From the UHGV virus genome UHGV-0230044: a stretch of 43,264 nucleotides of DNA, one strand, 5' to 3'. The notes beneath the pieces are model-generated. The model did no database searches. It was not told the DNA's origin and worked only from the letters and a program-made list of their open reading frames with translations. Shown here piece after piece: positions 29,360-33,646 of the stretch. Position 1 is the first letter of the stretch. Every line of letters begins with the position of its first letter. Both the position numbers and the translations under genes were made by a program. Source of the DNA: a virus.

Positions 29360-29431
29360 CTCCGGCAGCCGGATTCGAACCAGCGCTATGAGAGTCAAAG
29401 TCTCATGCCTTAACCGCTTGGCAATGCCGAA
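29360..29431 (-). tRNA. tRNA-Gln (anticodon TTG)
   Basis: Folded by hand. Acceptor TTCGGCA/TGCCGGA, anticodon stem TGAGA/TCTCA with loop CTTTGAC, T-arm GCTGG-TTCGAAT-CCGGC. Confidence 0.75.
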
Positions 29432-29503
29432 AGCTGATAGCCGGACTTGAACCGACAACATATTGATTACAAGTCAATTGTTCTTCCATTGAACTATACC
29501 AGC
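29432..29503 (-). tRNA. tRNA-Thr (anticodon TGT)
   Basis: Acceptor GCTGGTA/TATCAGC, D-arm GTTC-AATGGAA-GAAC, anticodon stem ATTGA/TCAAT with loop CTTGTAA, T-arm GTCGG-TTCAAGT-CCGGC. Confidence 0.75.
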
Positions 29504-29507
29504 AAAA

Positions 29508-29581
29508 TGGACCGCCAGGGACTTGAACCCCGGACCACCCGGTTATGAGCCGGGCGCTCTGACCAGCTGAGCTAGCGGTCC
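29508..29581 (-). tRNA. tRNA-Met (anticodon CAT), elongator type; could be Ile2/lysidine
   Basis: Acceptor GGACCGC/GCGGTCC, D-arm GCTC-AGCTGGTCA-GAGC, anticodon stem CCCGG/CCGGG with loop CTCATAA, T-arm CGGGG-TTCAAGT-CCCTG. The 1:72 pair is formed and no GGG/CCC initiator signature is present. Confidence 0.75.
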
Positions 29582-29584
29582 TAA

Positions 29585-29614
29585 AATGCCTGGCATGATT
29601 ACATACCAGGCATT
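29585..29614 (-). promoter_or_regulatory. 9-bp hairpin AATGCCTGG/CCAGGCATT immediately 5' of the tRNA cluster (minus-strand sense)
   Basis: Seen in the sequence. On the minus strand, TTTTAG follows the hairpin, just before the tRNA-Met 5' end. Confidence 0.4.
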
Positions 29615-29908
29615 TACAAGGGGAAAAGAAAAACTCTGCTTATAGCAGCGGAATCCTCGCTGCGGTCGTAAGCCGCATTAACAGCCTATCAGCTACGAGG
29701 TGAAAGGAGGAAATTCAAGGCCAGTCAAAGCACTTGAATTTTGATCTGGCAAGCGCACGCCGGAAATTTCATCCGCTTTTCAACCTCCAGGAATGGCCTG
29801 TTTATATTAAGGACGTGCGCGGGAGGTGTGTGATAAAACCATGAAAAGTAACCAATCCTCTTCACATCTACATTCTACCATTTATCTATAAGTACCTTGT
29901 CCACACAT

Positions 29909-30451
29909 CTACAGCATATCTCTAAGCTTATCCACATAGCGCTTCACAAGATCGCGTTCTTCGCGGCATTCTGCGTCCTTTGACATATCACCGATTTCTG
30001 CCGTAAGCCCATCCAAGTGTTCCTCTAATGCGGCCAGCATTTTACGCTTACAGTCCTCTGATTTGCCGGATCGATAGCTCTGCTTTTGCGTCATGTAATC
30101 ATCATAAGCATCTCGACCATCGCTCCGGCTGTAATGTCCACGCACATAATGCTCACCACGGCGCATATAGGATGATCCGCGGTCATAATCTGGCATTCGG
30201 CCATCAGAAGCGCTATAACGCCCCATGTTATCACGTCCGCGGCGCTCGCTGTAGTCACCTACACGCATCTGTTCCAAAACGGTCATATAATACTCGCCCT
30301 TTTTATCCCAATACTCTGTGTTTTTAATGTCTTTATACATATCAATCAGCTTAAAAGCCGTGTCCAGATTGCCGGAGGTGAGGCCTTTTTCAGCAATGTT
30401 AGATATCTCATCTTCAATACGTGCACATAAATCTTTAATATCTCTCATCAT
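29909..30451 (-). CDS. RG/Y/D-rich low-complexity protein with coiled-coil ends
   Basis: Strong RBS AAGGAGGTGGG. Central region YSERRGRDNMGRYSASDGRMPDYDRGSSYMRRGEHYVRGHYSRSDGRDAYDDY. Confidence 0.5.
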   Translation of the reverse strand: MMRDIKDLCARIEDEISNIAEKGLTSGNLDTAFKLIDMYKDIKNTEYWDKKGEYYMTVLEQMRVGDYSERRGRDNMGRYSASDGRMPDYDRGSSYMRRGEHYVRGHYSRSDGRDAYDDYMTQKQSYRSGKSEDCKRKMLAALEEHLDGLTAEIGDMSKDAECREERDLVKRYVDKLRDML

Positions 30452-30460
30452 CCCACCTCC

Positions 30461-30883
30461 TTATGCTACCCGTGTTACCACAAGATTTGCATTTGCTACG
30501 GTGATAGCCTGGGTACTGGTATTCTCTACCGCAACATTAAAGCAGCATCCGCGCGGCACATCAATAAAGATTCCGGCAGATACGTTGTTAAACGCTTCTA
30601 CCGCGGTCGGTGTGGAAATCATCTGGGACGATAAGACAGGCTCACCGCCGATTGCAATAGCAAGAGAAATTGCTTCCGCTGTTCCTCCGGTCGGCACTGC
30701 GATATTCGCAGAAAAGCTAACAAAATAGCGGGCCTTGCACTGATTAGTCATTCCTCTGAGGGTAACAATGCCGCTGCCTTCCCGGTGCTGCACGCATGCG
30801 GTTCCTTTTACAGCGGTGTTGGTATACACCACGTTTCCGTTTGCTGCCACTTCCTGAGCGGCAACAGCTAAATATTCAGCCAT
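30461..30883 (-). CDS. BclA C-terminal-domain-like (C1q/TNF-like) exosporium/spore-surface-type protein
   Basis: Start at the ATG that follows RBS AAAAAGGAG. Ala/Val/Thr-rich beta pattern ...ISLAIAIGGEPV...ITVANANLVVTRVA resembles BclA CTD ...ISLGAPIVIQ...SASIIIEKVA. Confidence 0.45.
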   Translation of the reverse strand: MAEYLAVAAQEVAANGNVVYTNTAVKGTACVQHREGSGIVTLRGMTNQCKARYFVSFSANIAVPTGGTAEAISLAIAIGGEPVLSSQMISTPTAVEAFNNVSAGIFIDVPRGCCFNVAVENTSTQAITVANANLVVTRVA

Positions 30884-31791: not shown

Positions 31792-31838
31792 ATTGATATC
31801 TCCTTTGATTTATTTACATTCCCGGCCAGGATAATGTA

Positions 31839-32060
31839 CTATTTCATGCCGCCCAGCATCCGTTGAAACTGCTGTGCCATCTGCTGAGCCTGATCAAGCT
31901 GCGCCTGTGATATTCTGCCAGACTGCAACATCTTTTGTACCTCAGCTTTTGGGTCTCCCTTAAAGTTTTGCTTAAACTGCGCAAACTGCTGCATCATCTG
32001 CATGGGGCCGTTGCCGCCCATCGGCATGCCGCCGAACATTTGGAATAATGGGTTACTCAT
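31839..32060 (-). CDS. small Q/M-rich protein
   Basis: Start placed at ATG (MSNPLFQMFGGMPMGGNGPMQMMQQFAQFKQ...) after RBS AAGGGAGGTG. The track start at 32072 is a GTG. Confidence 0.5.
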   Translation of the reverse strand: MSNPLFQMFGGMPMGGNGPMQMMQQFAQFKQNFKGDPKAEVQKMLQSGRISQAQLDQAQQMAQQFQRMLGGMK

Positions 32061-32517
32061 CTGCTGCCGCACCTCCCTTTGATCTCCGGCTCTCTGGTTT
32101 GGCAGTAGAGCCGCCGCTTGCTGGAAACGAATTTATCTTGTCCAGAATCTCATTGTATTTGTCAAAAAGGTCCTGGTACTCTTTACGGGTAACATACATA
32201 TCATTCATGGCAGCTTCCGGTTGTTTCTGTGGCATTCTGCCGTTTATTTCGTGATACTCAAATACGCGTAAAGGTTGCGGCATGCCGGATACATCCGTTG
32301 ACTTGATGTAAAACCGCTCCGCTTCGCTGTCCATCAGCAGTACGCATGATCCGGGCGCAACAAGGTAAGACTTTGCCCCAGTCTCTCCCTGCACCCAGAG
32401 TATTCCTTGGTTATTTGTCGGTGCCATCGGCTGCGGGACGGGCTGATATTGGTTCATCTGCGCCATACGATCCTGATACGGCTGGTATGGCTGATACATG
32501 TTCGGATATGCTGCCAT
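32053..32517 (-). CDS. Q/Y/P-rich N-terminal protein (GerQ-like spore-coat-type composition)
   Basis: RBS GGAGGAAA. N-terminus MAAYPNMYQPYQPYQDRMAQMNQYQPVPQPMAP is followed by a globular domain. Confidence 0.5.
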   Translation of the reverse strand: MAAYPNMYQPYQPYQDRMAQMNQYQPVPQPMAPTNNQGILWVQGETGAKSYLVAPGSCVLLMDSEAERFYIKSTDVSGMPQPLRVFEYHEINGRMPQKQPEAAMNDMYVTRKEYQDLFDKYNEILDKINSFPASGGSTAKPESRRSKGGAAADE

Positions 32518-32677
32518 GTTCGATTTCCTCCAATTCTTCCAAAAAGATCAAAATATCGTGGTAATCGGTTTTTATAGGTATCTCTACCTCATCGTCATCG
32601 GAAAACATCTTCTTCACGCTTATATTTTGGCATAAAAAATAAGCCCCTGACAGTTCGTCAAAGGCTCAATAAAGTAT

Positions 32678-32887
32678 CTATAAAGTTCCACATATGCGAA
32701 TGATCTTTGAGTTTACCCGGCGGCTGATCCGCTTCGCGGTGGCAAGGCTCACATTCATGTTTTCTGCGCAGATCTCCATTGGCACGCCTGCGGCTCGGTA
32801 TTCAAATAAAGCTCTTTCCTCTGGTGTAAAATTCGCAAGTTTCCGGAAGTGGTTTAGCTCCGGCACTGTAAAATCATACACTTTCAA
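32678..32887 (-). CDS. sigma-70 region-4-like HTH regulator
   Basis: FTPEERALFEYRAAGVPMEICAENMNVSLATAKRISRRVNSKI matches the sigma70_r4 HTH pattern. TTG start with a weak RBS. Confidence 0.45.
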   Translation of the reverse strand: MKVYDFTVPELNHFRKLANFTPEERALFEYRAAGVPMEICAENMNVSLATAKRISRRVNSKIIRICGTL

Positions 32888-32898
32888 GATGAGATCTA

Positions 32899-33240
32899 TT
32901 ACCCCTCACTTTCTATCGGCTCATATGGTAGAGCCAGACATCTATTATAAAGATCTTCGCCTGTTCCATTGCCTCCAAGTGTCTTGTATGGACGAAACAT
33001 ATACTCAAGATTGTCTCTGTCTTCCAGTGTACAGTACTTACGTTTTAAGTAAAACGTACACGCCTGATAGAGCCGATCATGGAGAAGTGCCAGAACTCCC
33101 GCATTAATAGCATTTGTTCTCGCGCGTTCCGTCTTCAGCTGTTTATACAGTTTATGATATGCTCCCGAAAGTACTACTGATATAAGGCCAAACAGCCATG
33201 ATACCCAGTGTGCTGTTATGTACAGTATAATCATTTCCAT
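32899..33240 (-). CDS. membrane protein
   Basis: Start placed at the ATG after RBS AAGGAG. N-terminal transmembrane helix ILYITAHWVSWLFGLISVVLSGAY. Confidence 0.4.
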   Translation of the reverse strand: MEMIILYITAHWVSWLFGLISVVLSGAYHKLYKQLKTERARTNAINAGVLALLHDRLYQACTFYLKRKYCTLEDRDNLEYMFRPYKTLGGNGTGEDLYNRCLALPYEPIESEG

Positions 33241-33250
33241 TGTATACTCC

Positions 33251-33646
33251 TTAGTTATGATTTTTCTCCCAGTAATATATAGGAATTTCTCCCCCGCTAT
33301 CCCAGGTATCGTATATATGTCCGTCCTGCACACAAACAACATGGCCATCAATGCAAAGTATGTACGTCCCATGCTGATGCTCCGTGCAAAAATCAGCTAC
33401 TGTATAGATGTTTTGGATATGATCGTCTATCATATGCCGTCGATATCCCTTTTCTTTTAGATATGCGCCCCATACGTAATTAGCACTTGGCATATCAGAC
33501 AGCATACAAGCCTTTACCATGATGCCGGAGAAAACCGTCTCCCAGTCCTGCCCTGTTGCCTTACAGATGGCCCGGATAACGCAGTCACCTACGCGCTTAC
33601 CGGCTGGATTCGGATTGTAATACTCCCACTCAACATCATATTTCAT
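33251..33646 (-). CDS. putative papain-fold Cys/His enzyme (NlpC/P60-, C39- or transglutaminase-like)
   Basis: GDCVIRAICKATG with a Cys near residue 21, and HVVCVQDGHIYD with a His near residue 110: the Cys...His order of the papain-like fold. Confidence 0.4.
   Translation of the reverse strand: MKYDVEWEYYNPNPAGKRVGDCVIRAICKATGQDWETVFSGIMVKACMLSDMPSANYVWGAYLKEKGYRRHMIDDHIQNIYTVADFCTEHQHGTYILCIDGHVVCVQDGHIYDTWDSGGEIPIYYWEKNHN

Follow-up and report, generated by a model that had tools for sequence, protein, structure and literature searches.

The 4-kb block that interrupts the head genes of a human-gut Clostridia phage is, in our judgement, very probably a self-contained, horizontally mobile accessory cassette of gut-Clostridia temperate tailed phages and not a part of capsid morphogenesis, because the same ordered set of genes recurs elsewhere in the genomes of other phage lineages. 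The core of the cassette comprises the helix-turn-helix (HTH) regulator g3, the candidate Cys-His-Asp enzyme g1, and g4, g5, g6, g7 or its substitute g7b, and g8. Our best guess about its function, which is tentative and draws on analogy, is that these genes specify a cross-linkable, coat-like assembly that would act on the host spore.

Organization and coding potential of the block

The window (the whole stretch of 43,264 nucleotides analysed here, UHGV virus genome UHGV-0230044) contains the block at positions 29360-33646, the coordinates given in the earlier note, with all features on the minus strand. It consists of eight conserved genes (g1-g8), a degenerate small ORF, a RAGATH-21 RNA and three tRNAs. 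Upstream it is bounded by an SPP1-gp7-like head gene (33651-34868, 405 aa; PF06152 Phage_min_cap2, E 9.5e-71) and downstream by a scaffold gene (28648-29283, 211 aa; PF06810 Phage_scaffold, E 3e-22), which is followed by the capsid gene (27419-28585, 388 aa), all three likewise on the minus strand. These flanks confirm that an island of about 4 kb lies between head-assembly genes and is extra to the usual gp7-scaffold-capsid layout, as had been noted from the sequence.

None of g1-g8 reached the Pfam or NCBIfam cut-offs. Nonetheless, each matches a PHROG family (E 5e-25 to 6e-63 for g1, g2 and g4-g8, and a weak 8e-4 for g3), and independent gene callers return the same ORFs, with the exception of g3. 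Each cassette gene has thousands of homologues, and homologues in conserved order occur in hundreds of loci; between loci this order is kept even where g6 is only 36-45% identical. Synonymous divergence is saturated, with dN of 0.10-0.47 across the cassette genes and a lower value for g6 (0.10) than for the capsid protein (0.16). The ORFs are thus genuine genes. One might argue that a block without a single functionally assigned protein, and with several proteins of low complexity, is no coherent system, only chance ORFs or unrelated hitch-hiking genes. However, the conserved order, dN values far below the saturated dS, the abundance of homologues and confident AF2 folds for two of the proteins (g1 and g7) leave this idea with a negligible probability, and we regard it as ruled out by the conservation data.

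The proteins g4-g8 are compositionally extreme, as the earlier note had recognized: relative to other late genes they are enriched in Cys (3.3x), Met (2.3x), Gln (1.7x) and Asn (1.6x). A hydropathy scan of the cassette proteins detected no hydrophobic N-terminal or transmembrane-type segment other than those of g2 and g6.

Distribution and mobility

Among relatives chosen by capsid similarity the cassette occupies the identical spot in 66 of 66, so that a gene-order comparison reveals a block fixed in its lineage rather than an indel in this phage. In other phage lineages the ordered set g3, g1, g4, g5, g6, g7 or g7b, g8 lies after tail or lysis genes, by the integrase. This set was seen again in 80 of 80 genome loci, which belong to many families of the Clostridia. 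The sites seen in annotated phages are the head module, after the lysin by the integrase, after the holin and lysin, after the receptor-binding protein, and after the integrase. The orientation is always that of the late genes, and different capsid genes accompany the cassette in different phages, including phages of 54-58 kb with their own DNA polymerase/primase genes. Altogether, thousands of phage genomes carry it at varying places; a search of the cultured Bacillus and Clostridioides phages in the phage collection returned no matches. Host names come from MAGs, whose bin assignments are unreliable, and some of these hosts (e.g. Subdoligranulum and Lachnospira) are, to our knowledge, not recognized as spore-formers.

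Genes and control elements of the cassette

The first gene, g1 (33251..33646, 131 aa; phrog_3754, E 8e-37), is a core member that in other phages stands before g4 or after g8. Its residues C22, H102 and D113 are invariant in alignments of 45 and 68 sequences, and the AF2 model (pLDDT 91.3) places the Cys at a helix start and the His and Asp on strands, like in papain-like enzymes. Foldseek against the PDB gave nothing significant, the top match being Josephin-2 (E 0.34, TM 0.45). The papain-fold enzyme suspected earlier therefore stands as far as the invariant triad and its papain-like placement go, and lacks a significant solved relative; the model is compatible with a papain-like Cys-His-Asp enzyme. 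The next gene, g2 (32899..33240, 113 aa; phrog_4105, E 3e-32), has a predicted N-terminal transmembrane helix (residues 3-24 in the hydropathy scan) and occurs in its slot only among the closest relatives (10 of the 66 capsid-selected loci); it is a variable accessory gene outside the cassette core.

A stand-alone HTH of the sigma-70-region-4 or LuxR-GerE type is encoded by g3 (32678..32887, 69 aa, TTG start; phrog_1190, E 8e-4), which is upstream of the cassette in most loci. The assignment to sigma-70 region 4, already made in the earlier note, is borne out at the level of the family: the window's own copy matches Sigma70_r4_2 only weakly (E 0.07), whereas among 46 family members 24 match Sigma70_r4, 18 match r4_2 and 8 match GerE, and the family profile matches SdiA, GerE (1fse, 1.9e-7), NarL and SigF region 4. 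Right after g3 the terminator scan detected an intrinsic-terminator-like hairpin (32640..32668), a 13-pair stem followed by TTTTTT, whose sequence is kept in relatives. It is followed by a promoter-like element, TTTATGCCAAAATATAA (32620..32636), which combines TRTG and n with a -10 hexamer in the extended -10 arrangement of the housekeeping-sigma type and occurs once in the window. Of 55 loci, 25 have the pattern TRTGnnAnAAT in the interval that separates g3 from the cassette gene following it, compared with a background frequency of 0.15 per kb; ATACTTT/CACTTTT boxes lie upstream of the element. Judged by consensus, the cassette promoter resembles a housekeeping extended -10 promoter, unlike the sigma-E or sigma-K consensus. 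Since g1-g3 directly adjoin the gp7-like gene, the gaps being no more than 4-11 nt, we propose that they would be transcribed together with the late head genes and that after the terminator the extended -10 promoter with its repeat boxes would drive g4-g6; g3 is probably its activator.

Downstream of the promoter, a 68-aa ORF from the ORF list (MFSDDDEV..., 32411..32617) overlaps g4 out of frame; in the close relative L005 a stop codon cuts through it. Intact versions of 40-53 aa exist in other cassettes (L084, L087, L088, L091, L093 and L134), and the ORF is probably what is left, in degenerate form, of a small conserved gene (MFSDE[VI]LEKIF...) that lies there between the promoter and g4. 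In a 43-sequence alignment, the protein g4 (32053..32517, 154 aa; phrog_21718, E 1e-37) starts with a Q/P/Y-rich segment, continues with a beta domain of about 55 aa that is conserved, and ends in a coiled coil; it has no relative in the PDB or Pfam. It is followed by g5 (31839..32060; phrog_22984, E 5e-25), a Gln/Met-rich helical protein of 73 aa, also in the calls of other pipelines, with 16 Gln and 10 Met among the 72 residues after the start codon.

The most conserved member of the cassette is g6 (31021..31791, 256 aa; phrog_16490, E 5e-55), with homologues in 1998 clusters at 50% identity (E<=1e-3). A short hydrophobic anchor lies between Gly-rich runs (residues 24-42 in the window's copy, from the hydropathy scan), a helical region rich in N and Q carries an invariant CCC, and the protein also has a PxPAY motif and ends in a CxC tail; C87, C140-142, C160, P235/P237/A238, C254 and C256 are invariant. 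It belongs to no Pfam family and its PDB matches are only coiled-coil noise; the proposed likeness to YjcZ received no profile support.

Between g6 and g7 lies a structured leader (30895..31010, from the terminator scan and folding), in which hairpin P1, AUGUU, hairpin P2 (UCGGC...GCCGA), UAUUR, a terminator hairpin (30914-30931) and a U-run follow one another. Of 30 divergent leaders, the window's among them, most show this arrangement of three hairpins in their minimum-energy fold; RNAalifold reports compensatory changes at 11 of 13 pairs of P2 and P3, and P1, with 17 different arm sequences, is present in 21 of 27 leaders compared to 22% of shuffles. The leader matches no Rfam family. On this evidence from sequence and folding, it is probably an attenuator setting the expression of g7-g8, which would meter read-through from upstream.

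The product of g7 (30461..30883, 140 aa; phrog_20016, E 4e-57) is a stand-alone jelly-roll of the TNF/C1q type. Its AF2 model (pLDDT 89.4, pTM 0.85) retrieves 9h38 (3e-8), 1rj7, 7r1m, 8d02 and 3tyj from the PDB with Foldseek, the best solved matches being F-BclA-CTD, EDA-A1, ExsFA/BxpB and BclA (TM 0.68-0.75), and in BFVD the closest matches are to stand-alone proteins of gut phages (TM 0.81-0.87). The fold behind the earlier label of a BclA-CTD-like beta protein has thus been recovered. A CC pair is invariant in this protein, which lacks both a collagen stalk and an anchoring segment and gives no match to Pfam BclA_C. In other cassettes its place is taken by g7b, a Cys-rich beta protein unrelated to g7 by hhalign, and the two are exchanged (as between L131 and L132) in phages with flanks that are 71-94% identical.

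C1q-like domains are common in viruses, including the fibre knobs of phages and giant viruses, and it could be argued that the cassette encodes late structural extras of the virion. For example, g7 might be a trimer on the capsid or fibre tip, g6 and g8 might be internal proteins or be ejected, and g1 might serve as the protease in maturation. The position within the late operon between the gp7-like and scaffold genes, fixation in the capsid-selected relatives, strong purifying selection, the constant late-gene orientation and neighbouring tRNAs suited to bulk late translation all agree with this. Nonetheless, we consider it improbable: in other lineages the cassette sits after lysis genes or by the integrase, it has its own regulator, promoter and terminators, g7 and g7b are exchanged between otherwise related phages, g7 has neither stalk nor anchor, and the members include a protein with a hydrophobic anchor and low-complexity proteins. 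The earlier note held that clear structural homology to known head-decoration or head-fibre proteins would speak against its reading; the structure searches found no such likeness, nor one to ejection proteins, for the cassette proteins.

The last gene, g8 (29909..30451, 179-180 aa; phrog_28802, E 6e-63), has helical ends, a low-complexity Arg/Gly/Tyr/Ser/Asp-rich core and, in the alignment, a conserved RRDSxGRYS-type motif, and has no PDB relative. The gap between g8 and the tRNAs contains a full-length RAGATH-21 RNA (29752..29821; Rfam RF03097, 79 bits against a gathering score of 70.3, E 8e-15). Related sequences occur in 44 of 167 loci, every one of the head-module type, and the RNA is tied to this context rather than to the cassette in general. 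ARAGORN and Rfam identify tRNA-Met (CAT, 29508..29581, 67.9 bits), tRNA-Thr (TGT, 29432..29503, 69.3 bits) and tRNA-Gln (TTG, 29359..29432, 57.3 bits); in relatives the tRNAs adjoining g8 include Met, Gln, Tyr, Cys and Gly.

Possible functions

The extreme composition of g4-g8, together with the adjoining phage tRNAs (for Met and Gln in this genome, for Tyr, Cys and Gly in relatives), suggests bulk structural material, and we see about even chances that the products form a coat-like, cross-linked assembly. In such a structure g6 would anchor the whole on a membrane face through its short hydrophobic segment, and other components could attach to its CCC and CxC cysteines and to its PxPAY tail. 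The matrix would be formed by the Q-rich g4 and g5 with the RG/Y-rich g8, and the exchangeable outer element by g7b or by the C1q/ExsF-like g7, for which we presume a trimer as in its structural relatives. The components would be matured or cross-linked by g1, by proteolysis or transglutaminase-like Gln chemistry. Pro-rich leader peptides dock onto ExsF, which is itself a stand-alone trimer (PMC12357932).

Alternatively, abundant Cys-rich proteins might be set free at lysis and be cross-linked by oxidation, giving a matrix or occlusion in which virions are protected or aggregated once outside the anaerobic gut. Conserved cysteines, a bulk-type composition and the absence of secretion signals would suit this, and a dedicated activator besides the late operon would suggest a very-late, high-output class. 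However, this is a pure analogy with the occlusion bodies of insect viruses, we know of no occlusion-like structure in tailed phages, and the hydrophobic anchor of g6 would be left without explanation; we deem it very improbable.

On the other hand, the cassette could act on the host, or late inside the cell, without any spore being involved: for instance in membrane-based superinfection exclusion or defence, envelope remodelling, release control or, as a membrane-bound condensate, in organizing late infection. The moron-like layout with promoter and terminators, the housekeeping type of that promoter, the usual place by lysis genes and the integrase, typical for conversion and exclusion genes, and the predicted membrane anchor of the most conserved member, g6, point in this direction, as do the RG/Y-rich and Q/N-rich sequences, which we take to be like those of condensate-forming proteins. 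Yet PADLOC returned nothing beyond a weak match to ZorA through a coiled coil, and no nuclease, ATPase or other domain typical of defence was found; a set of seven genes in conserved order, of bulk-type composition and supported by tRNAs, would be unusual for exclusion, and no specific target is indicated. We regard a role of this kind as unlikely.

That the cassette acts on the spore is possible, albeit doubtful, and the phage-borne spore-modifying module proposed in the earlier note stays an analogy. We count in its favour the fold of g7 and its CC pair, the cysteines and PxPAY motif of g6, the triad of g1, the GerE and sigma region 4 matches of the g3 family, the Cys/Met/Gln/Asn enrichment and the adjoining tRNAs. 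Against it are the housekeeping-type promoter, the co-orientation with late genes, the contiguity of g1-g3 with the late head genes, a likeness to spore proteins that is limited to g7, with a fold common in viral fibres, the lack of matches in the collection's cultured Bacillus and Clostridioides phages, and the MAG hosts that are not recognized as spore-formers. Moreover, fixation in the lineage and a g6 more tightly conserved than the capsid protein are more readily explained by a function on which the phage itself depends than by optional cargo for the host.

The comparison of g7 with the exosporium proteins BclA and ExsFA/BxpB reveals a likeness at the level of the fold only, at 11-15% identity and for one cassette protein. 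Spore coat and exosporium proteins assemble in the mother-cell cytoplasm and have no secretion signals. The spore coat/exosporium is the closest working analogue of the cassette, and for this reason we rank remodelling of the host spore surface as its likeliest role.

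Gene layout of the window and of the inserted block

The window amounts to an essentially complete genome (43 kb) of a temperate human-gut phage, with genes for an integrase, a holin and an endolysin that has cell-wall-binding repeats. All of its genes at 26-38 kb lie on the minus strand. The large terminase (36303-37862), the portal (34876-36303) and a 405-aa head protein of the SPP1 gp7 type (33651-34868), which matches PF06152 (Phage_min_cap2) with E 9.5e-71, form the upstream end of this region, and the scaffold protein (28648-29283; PF06810) and, 3' of it, the 388-aa capsid protein (27419-28585) form the downstream end. 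The gp7-like gene is separated from the scaffold gene by a block of genes, hereafter the cassette, encoding a small Cys-His-Asp protein (g1), an accessory transmembrane protein (g2), a helix-turn-helix (HTH) protein (g3), three low-complexity proteins (g4, g5 and g8), a Cys-rich anchor protein (g6) and a jelly-roll protein (g7); g8 is followed by a non-coding gap of 330 nt and by tRNA-Met, tRNA-Thr and tRNA-Gln on the same strand (29359-29581). The earlier note had counted nine genes and three tRNAs here, and the gene calls of the window agree with it both in number and in coordinates; the start codons of g1-g8 were refined by eye from their ribosome-binding sites. None of the block proteins, all of which were searched, reaches the cut-off of a Pfam or NCBIfam family. 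Every one of them falls in a PHROG family, and all these families are of unknown function except for a weak match of g3 to a sigma-factor family.

A 68-aa ORF (32411-32617) overlaps g4 out of frame and seems to be a degenerate version of a small gene with the product MFSDE[VI]LEKIF... (40-53 aa), whose counterpart is intact between the promoter and g4 in six other cassette loci (L084, L087, L088, L091, L093 and L134); in a close relative of the window phage (L005) the ORF is interrupted by a stop codon.

Outside the block, the translations reveal a lysogeny module at 10342-13465, with a divergent pair of XRE-type HTH genes (10342-10563 on the minus and 10787-11170 on the plus strand), an ImmA-like protein with a HELGH metalloprotease motif (11183-11620) and the integrase (12107-13465, plus strand), the only lysogeny gene checked by profile, which matches PHROG integrase families. 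The endolysin (13801-14601) adjoins the integrase, and the holin (phrog_1129; 26454-26723, minus strand) is found among the head-tail joining genes together with an HNH endonuclease (25766-26392, minus strand); the holin being far from the endolysin, the lysis genes of this phage are split. As the phage has a canonical endolysin and a holin of its own, and as g1 is unrelated to a C39-like phage lysin (hhalign probability 0.4%), we rejected the interpretation of the block as a lysis module with g1 as lysin and g2 and g6 as holins. The capsid protein has a precomputed match to PF18316 (S-layer SbsC C-terminal domain) in all close relatives, which suggests an extra surface-exposed domain.

Distribution and mobility of the cassette

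When relatives were picked by their capsid protein, and hence without bias as to the block, g1 and g3-g8 were found between the gp7-like gene and the scaffold gene in all 66 loci with enough upstream sequence to be counted, whereas g2 (113 aa, 32899-33240) was found in only 10 of them. Such universal presence rules out a recent indel in the window phage, and the comparison of gene order proposed in the earlier note thus speaks against the block being an indel. Homologues of g1 and g3-g8 also stand in the same order in 80 of 80 loci retrieved from IMG/VR with g6.

A wider scan with a degenerate pattern, with one genome per species, yielded 217 relatives of g6, nearly all from gut Clostridia (Lachnospiraceae, Oscillospiraceae, Acutalibacteraceae, Ruminococcus, Faecousia) and some from Bacilli MAGs, the nearest being that of Lachnospira intestinalis (81%). 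Iterative profile searches across these loci revealed the recurrent order (g3)-g1-g4-g5-g6-(x76)-g7 or g7b-g8-(y129), where g7b is a Cys-rich beta protein unrelated to g7 that occupies its slot; in some loci g1 is 3' of g8 rather than before g4. The optional gene y129 (about 110-130 aa) follows g8 in 19 loci, x76 (about 76 aa) lies between g6 and g7 or g7b in 7 loci, and both are absent from the window; example coordinates of optional genes are 10603-10992 in L002, 10618-10848 in L084 and 11199-11432 in L085. In L083 and L085 the g8 slot is filled by another protein, g8b, of 259-332 aa.

The position of the cassette varies. It lies between the gp7-like gene and the scaffold gene in about 20 loci and after tape-measure, tail or lysin genes in about 25, at least 9 of which then continue with an oppositely oriented integrase. 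Among named phages, Dulem virus 35 and Bajarodcaudo virus 2 hold it in the head module, Dulem virus 33 3' of the lysin and adjoining the integrase, Bajarodcaudo virus 5 3' of the holin and a C39-like lysin, Dulem virus 36 3' of the receptor-binding protein, and Dulem virus 39 3' of the integrase. One member can also be exchanged on its own: two related prophages, L131 and L132 (binned to Dorea and Enterocloster hominis), are 88% identical over g3-g6-x76 and 71-94% in the flanks, and in the slot after x76 (10860-11425 in L131, 10857-11466 in L132) they carry unrelated genes, g7 in one and g7b (MACKxxCxLC...) in the other. This is a clean module swap within the cassette. A block that keeps its internal order, moves among module boundaries and swaps a member independently of the capsid behaves as accessory DNA, and we consider it very probable that it is a mobile accessory cassette rather than a component of capsid morphogenesis.

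These observations bear directly on the possibility that the cassette encodes an accessory set of virion proteins, a role that we rank third and regard as unlikely. Its setting in the late operon, its fixation in the lineage and the adjoining tRNAs would agree with such a role. However, it has been relocated away from the head genes in other phages, it has a regulator and a promoter of its own, g7 and g7b replace each other, and its proteins match no known decoration or fibre protein. Structural homology to head decoration or head fibre proteins, on which the earlier note had made its interpretation hinge, was searched for with g7 and g1 using Foldseek and was not found, and in many loci the cassette is away from the head genes altogether.

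With regard to hosts, proteins identical to those of the window occur on human gut metagenome contigs of 42-45 kb, and related prophages are present in the isolates Lachnospira intestinalis CLA-AA-H89B, Enterocloster hominis CLA-SR-H021 and Muriventricola aceti H5_61 and in Eubacterium ramulus. No cultured phage in the collection searched, Bacillus and Clostridioides phages included, bears the cassette. A 557-kb scaffold labelled 'Prevotella' (L149) was rejected as an instance of a non-sporulating Gram-negative host: the GC content of its cassette stretch, 31-35%, is too low for Prevotella, so the scaffold or the bin is probably chimeric or mis-binned. The other non-Firmicutes labels, among them Collinsella, Paludibacteraceae and Onthomorpha, attached to phage-sized contigs, are probably also due to mis-binning.

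Constraint, family size and composition

The cassette proteins are strongly constrained. In comparison with a single relative with 78% capsid identity, for which synonymous sites are saturated, dN amounts to 0.10 for g6, 0.12 for g8 and 0.15 for g7; the corresponding values of the capsid and gp7-like proteins are 0.16 and 0.34. The families are large: two g7 queries returned 3090 and 4341 clusters at 90% identity, g1 returned 3105 clusters at 90% identity and g6 1998 clusters at 50% identity, and IMG/VR holds more than 587 close copies of the cassette. Compared with other late genes, g4-g8 are enriched in Cys (3.3-fold), Met (2.3-fold), Gln (1.7-fold) and Asn (1.6-fold).

Regulation and RNA elements

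The gene g3 (69 aa, 32678-32887) starts with TTG. Of the 46 members of its family, 24 match the Pfam domain Sigma70_r4, 18 r4_2 and 8 GerE, and the family profile finds in the PDB SdiA (5e-8), GerE (1fse, 1.9e-7), NarL and region 4 of SigF. The sigma-70 region-4 HTH recognized in the earlier note therefore holds for the family and is marginal for the window copy alone, which stays below the Pfam cut-off (E 0.07). A protein of 69 aa that comprises only region 4, without regions 2 and 3, is not a sigma factor, and we classify g3 from its sequence as a stand-alone HTH protein of the region-4/LuxR type. It resembles GerE in being a single domain of about 70 aa.

The gaps from the gp7-like gene through g1 and g2 to g3 are only 4-11 nt long, which implies that g1, g2 and g3 are read together with the late head genes. 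Directly 3' of g3 there is a 13-bp terminator hairpin, followed by TTTATGCCAAAATATAA, which occurs only once in the window and which we read as a putative TRTG-n-(-10) element, i.e. an extended -10 of the housekeeping type. Extended -10 elements are typical of Gram-positive housekeeping promoters. The motif TRTGnnAnAAT recurs in 25 of 55 loci within the short stretch that follows g3, compared with a background frequency of 0.15 per kb, and transcripts from this promoter would start about 7 nt after TATGCCAAAAT. Repeated ATACTTT/CACTTTT boxes upstream of the extended -10 element are candidate target sites of g3. Inspection by eye disclosed no consistent, conserved box of the CATACA or CATA-N3-TA type (sigma-E/sigma-K). 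A terminator scan placed putative terminators 3' of g3, g6 and g8, and a second long hairpin with a T-run is visible by eye just before tRNA-Met.

Between g6 and g7 there is a three-hairpin leader (30895-31010, minus strand), with a comparable site in about 30 loci (alignment A11). It consists of hairpin P1, AUGUU, hairpin P2 (UCGGC...GCCGA), UAUUR and a terminator hairpin with a U-run, a layout that appears in the minimum-energy folds of most of 30 divergent leaders, the window's among them. Of the 13 pairs of P2 and P3, 11 show compensatory changes according to RNAalifold; P1, with 17 different arm sequences, was detected in 21 of 27 leaders, compared to 22% of shuffles. The element matches no Rfam family. 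It looks like an attenuator that would set the level of g7-g8 relative to g4-g6, and we regard it as a candidate for a new attenuator RNA; a leader peptide starting at the conserved AUGUU was rejected, as the reading frames differ and a ribosome-binding site is absent. The leader of g7b-type cassettes is a different one: a CCCCGAAA...UUUCGGGG hairpin in it overlaps with the stem of the terminator, which looks like an antiterminator/terminator switch.

An RNA of the RAGATH-21 family (RF03097) lies between g8 and tRNA-Met (29752-29821, minus strand; 79 bits versus a gathering threshold of 70.3, covering positions 1-76 of the 76 of the model). Related sequences are present in 44 of 167 loci, in all of which the cassette occupies the head module, 5' of the scaffold gene; our literature search turned up no mention of RAGATH-21.

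The tRNAs directly 3' of g8 vary among the relatives with a head-module cassette: Met, Gln (TTG or CTG), Tyr, Thr, Ile, Gly, Cys and Lys are all represented. Such variable tRNAs, directly after g8 or g1, were seen in loci L003-L037 and L108-L163, and the tRNA entries of L122 and L140 have odd anticodons of 2 or 4 bases. The strongest enrichments in g4-g8 are those of Met, Gln and Cys, and g4 and g8 contain many Tyr residues. However, the cassette prefers CAG (48 codons) to CAA (9) and is not rich in Thr, so the link between the tRNAs and the protein composition is only suggestive. The adjoining tRNAs hint that the cassette products are made in bulk.

Predicted structures and families of the cassette proteins

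The AlphaFold2 model of g7 (140 aa, 30461-30883), built from an alignment of 52 sequences from two clades, is all-beta (pLDDT 89.4, pTM 0.85), with a jelly-roll spanning residues 2-138. A Foldseek search of the PDB returned 118 matches at E<=1e-3, the best being F-BclA-CTD of Bacillus thuringiensis (9h38, E 3e-8, TM 0.70-0.73), with ExsFA (7r1m/7r5i), BxpB (8d02) and ExsF at TM of about 0.70-0.74 and BclA (3tyj) at 0.68, followed by 4-1BBL and C1q-like proteins; over F-BclA-CTD, ExsFA, BxpB and BclA together, TM ranges over 0.68-0.73 and E from 3e-8 to 7e-6. According to the model, g7 would be a ten-strand jelly-roll of the TNF/C1q type. Human EDA-A1 (TM 0.75) scores as well as the exosporium proteins do, so the match identifies a fold and not a function. 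The description of g7 as BclA-CTD-like in the earlier note is therefore borne out for the fold, but g7 lacks a collagen stalk and matches no Pfam family at E<=0.1, BclA_C (PF18573) included. Neither phmmer nor a profile search of the PDB recovers any solved TNF/C1q member, and the 140 residues contain no exosporium leader, no collagen-like GXX repeat stalk and no repeat region.

Among predicted viral structures, the closest to g7 are stand-alone proteins of 130-142 aa from uncultured gut phages (TM 0.81-0.87), followed by C1q knobs on collagen-like fibres. As to g7b, neither hhalign nor Pfam nor the PDB supports it as a diverged g7 or as a spore-appendage subunit of the Ena/DUF3992/DUF4183 type; sequence and profile searches of the PDB with g7b found nothing beyond coiled-coil noise.

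In g1 (131 aa, 33251-33646) the residues C22, H102 and D113 are invariant in alignments of 45 (A3) and 68 (A5) sequences. The model (pLDDT 91.3) places the Cys at the start of a helix (22-31) and the His and Asp on consecutive strands (102-107 and 110-113), and this predicted order of secondary structures fits a papain-like arrangement. A Foldseek search of the PDB with g1 gave no significant match (the best was Josephin-2, E 0.34, probability 0.69, TM 0.45), with a weak tail that includes further cysteine proteases: PaTox, USP5, TssM and MCF. Pfam, NCBIfam and PDB profiles gave none either. Of the papain fold suggested earlier, the invariant Cys-His-Asp triad stands and the predicted order of elements fits, whereas a significant structural or sequence relative is missing. 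The triad and the helix/strand placement predicted for g1 agree with those of papain-like enzymes (Josephin, C39, the Tgl spore-coat transglutaminase, NlpC/P60, CHAP), but g1 is smaller than most of them. We consider g1 a new minimal Cys-His-Asp family, putatively of peptidases or transglutaminases.

The g6 protein (256 aa, 31021-31791) combines one short hydrophobic segment between Gly-rich runs with a helical region rich in Asn and Gln, and its invariant positions are C87, CCC140-142, C160, PxPA235-238 and a terminal CxC. It has no relative in Pfam, NCBIfam or the PDB, where searches gave only coiled-coil noise, and 60 representatives of its family (A6) have no Pfam family in common. The earlier label 'YjcZ-like' (TIGR01732) is not supported, as neither g6 nor the 60 representatives have an NCBIfam or Pfam match and only the Gly-flanked hydrophobic segment is similar. 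One representative carries a GDSL lipase/acylhydrolase domain (PF13472, E 3e-10), which may be either a genuine fusion or an artefact of assembly. Some other host-directed or membrane-associated late function of the cassette ranks second among the roles that we considered, and we find it rather doubtful.

Among the remaining members, g4 (154 aa, 32053-32517) starts with a stretch rich in Gln, Pro and Tyr, continues with a conserved beta domain (about 55 aa) and ends in a coiled coil; g5 (73 aa, 31839-32060) is helical and rich in Gln and Met; and g8 (180 aa, 29909-30451) has helical ends flanking a core rich in Arg, Gly, Tyr, Ser and Asp with a motif of the RRDSxGRYS type. Sequence and profile searches of the PDB with g4 and g8 detected nothing beyond coiled-coil noise, and a hydropathy scan of g4, g5, g7 and g8 found no hydrophobic segment suggestive of a signal peptide or a membrane anchor. 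That the cassette makes a post-lysis matrix, the fourth-ranked role, seems to us highly improbable. A defence system was rejected, as PADLOC returned only a weak coiled-coil match to ZorA.

Possible role of the cassette

The cassette is a mobile, strongly constrained and, by prediction, self-regulated set, the products of which include a Cys-rich protein with a hydrophobic anchor, a protein of the C1q fold, three proteins of low complexity and a small Cys-His-Asp protein. We propose that these may form one assembly, in which g6 would be the anchor and, with its cysteines and PxPAY motif, the docking platform, g4, g5 and g8 the matrix, g7 or g7b an exchangeable outer element, and g1 a maturing or cross-linking enzyme. 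Surface proteins without a secretion signal are typical of virions and of spore coats and exosporia, the latter being assembled in the cytoplasm of the mother cell.

Remodelling of the spore surface is our first-ranked role for such an assembly, albeit a tentative one that may well prove wrong. It is suggested, by analogy, by the composition of the proteins, the ExsF/BclA-like fold of g7, the GerE-like regulator and the host range among Clostridia; on the other hand, the promoter is of the housekeeping type, the cassette is co-oriented with the late genes, the likeness to spore proteins is one of fold only, and cultured Bacillus and Clostridioides phages in the collection lack the cassette. 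In Pfam and NCBIfam no member matches a spore coat or exosporium family, and g7 alone is alike, at the level of the fold. The spore-coat analogy is thus a testable lead and not a finding.

It is tempting to go further and to picture the cassette as a portable, self-regulated 'mini-coat' module that is built into the spore surface of the lysogen, an idea to which we give only a modest chance. Its parts would be a membrane anchor, a Q-rich and RG/Y-rich matrix, a C1q trimer that resembles ExsF/BclA and can be exchanged, an enzyme for cross-linking or processing, and an activator similar to GerE. If true, the module would change the adhesion, resistance, germination or phage susceptibility of spores; structural genes would then bring about a lysogenic conversion of the spore, something not described so far.

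The cassette is very common in phages of the dominant Clostridia of the human gut, and none of its genes belongs to a described system. Should it form a coat-like layer around spores, gut anaerobes would have their transmission stage shaped directly by phages; as a virion component or very late product, it would represent a new class of phage structural material. Either way, it comprises a new minimal Cys-His-Asp family of which no relative has been solved, a viral family of stand-alone C1q-fold proteins, a family of Cys-rich anchor proteins and a candidate new attenuator RNA.

Relationship to known systems

Our literature search found nothing relevant on the cassette, on BclA or exosporium genes of phages, or on effects of Lachnospiraceae prophages on spores. 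In its architecture g7 resembles ExsF/BxpB of Bacillus, a stand-alone trimer whose subunit interfaces serve as docking sites for Pro-rich leader peptides (PMC12357932). Like it, g7 consists of a single free-standing domain (about 140 aa) and has neither a collagen stalk nor a secretion signal; it differs from the Bacillus exosporium proteins in its sequence (identity of only 11-15%) and in being encoded by phages of gut Clostridia, outside any sporulation locus. With the C1q/collagen-like fibres of phages and giant viruses g7 has in common the fold of the knob, but there it caps the C-terminus of a long collagen-like or fibre protein, whereas g7 and its closest viral relatives stand alone.

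Phages are known to carry sporulation genes, such as the sigF/sigG-like sigma factors of Bacillus phages (PMC9429907), which provide a precedent for phage genes acting on the sporulation of the host. Those genes, however, are regulators with clear homology to host genes, whereas the cassette is a putative structural set without homology to the coat genes of the host. Since it corresponds to no system described in Pfam, NCBIfam, PADLOC or the PHROGs annotation, we take the cassette to be a phage gene module of a new kind. In its organization it recalls the morons of phages such as lambda and HK97, units of promoter, gene and terminator inserted between late genes. The cassette is likewise insulated, with a promoter-like element and terminators of its own (as judged by consensus motifs), and it lies at module boundaries of the late region, in positions that vary among phages. 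It differs from morons in consisting of seven or eight co-ordered genes with a dedicated regulator and a structured leader, and in being fixed within its lineage rather than patchy.
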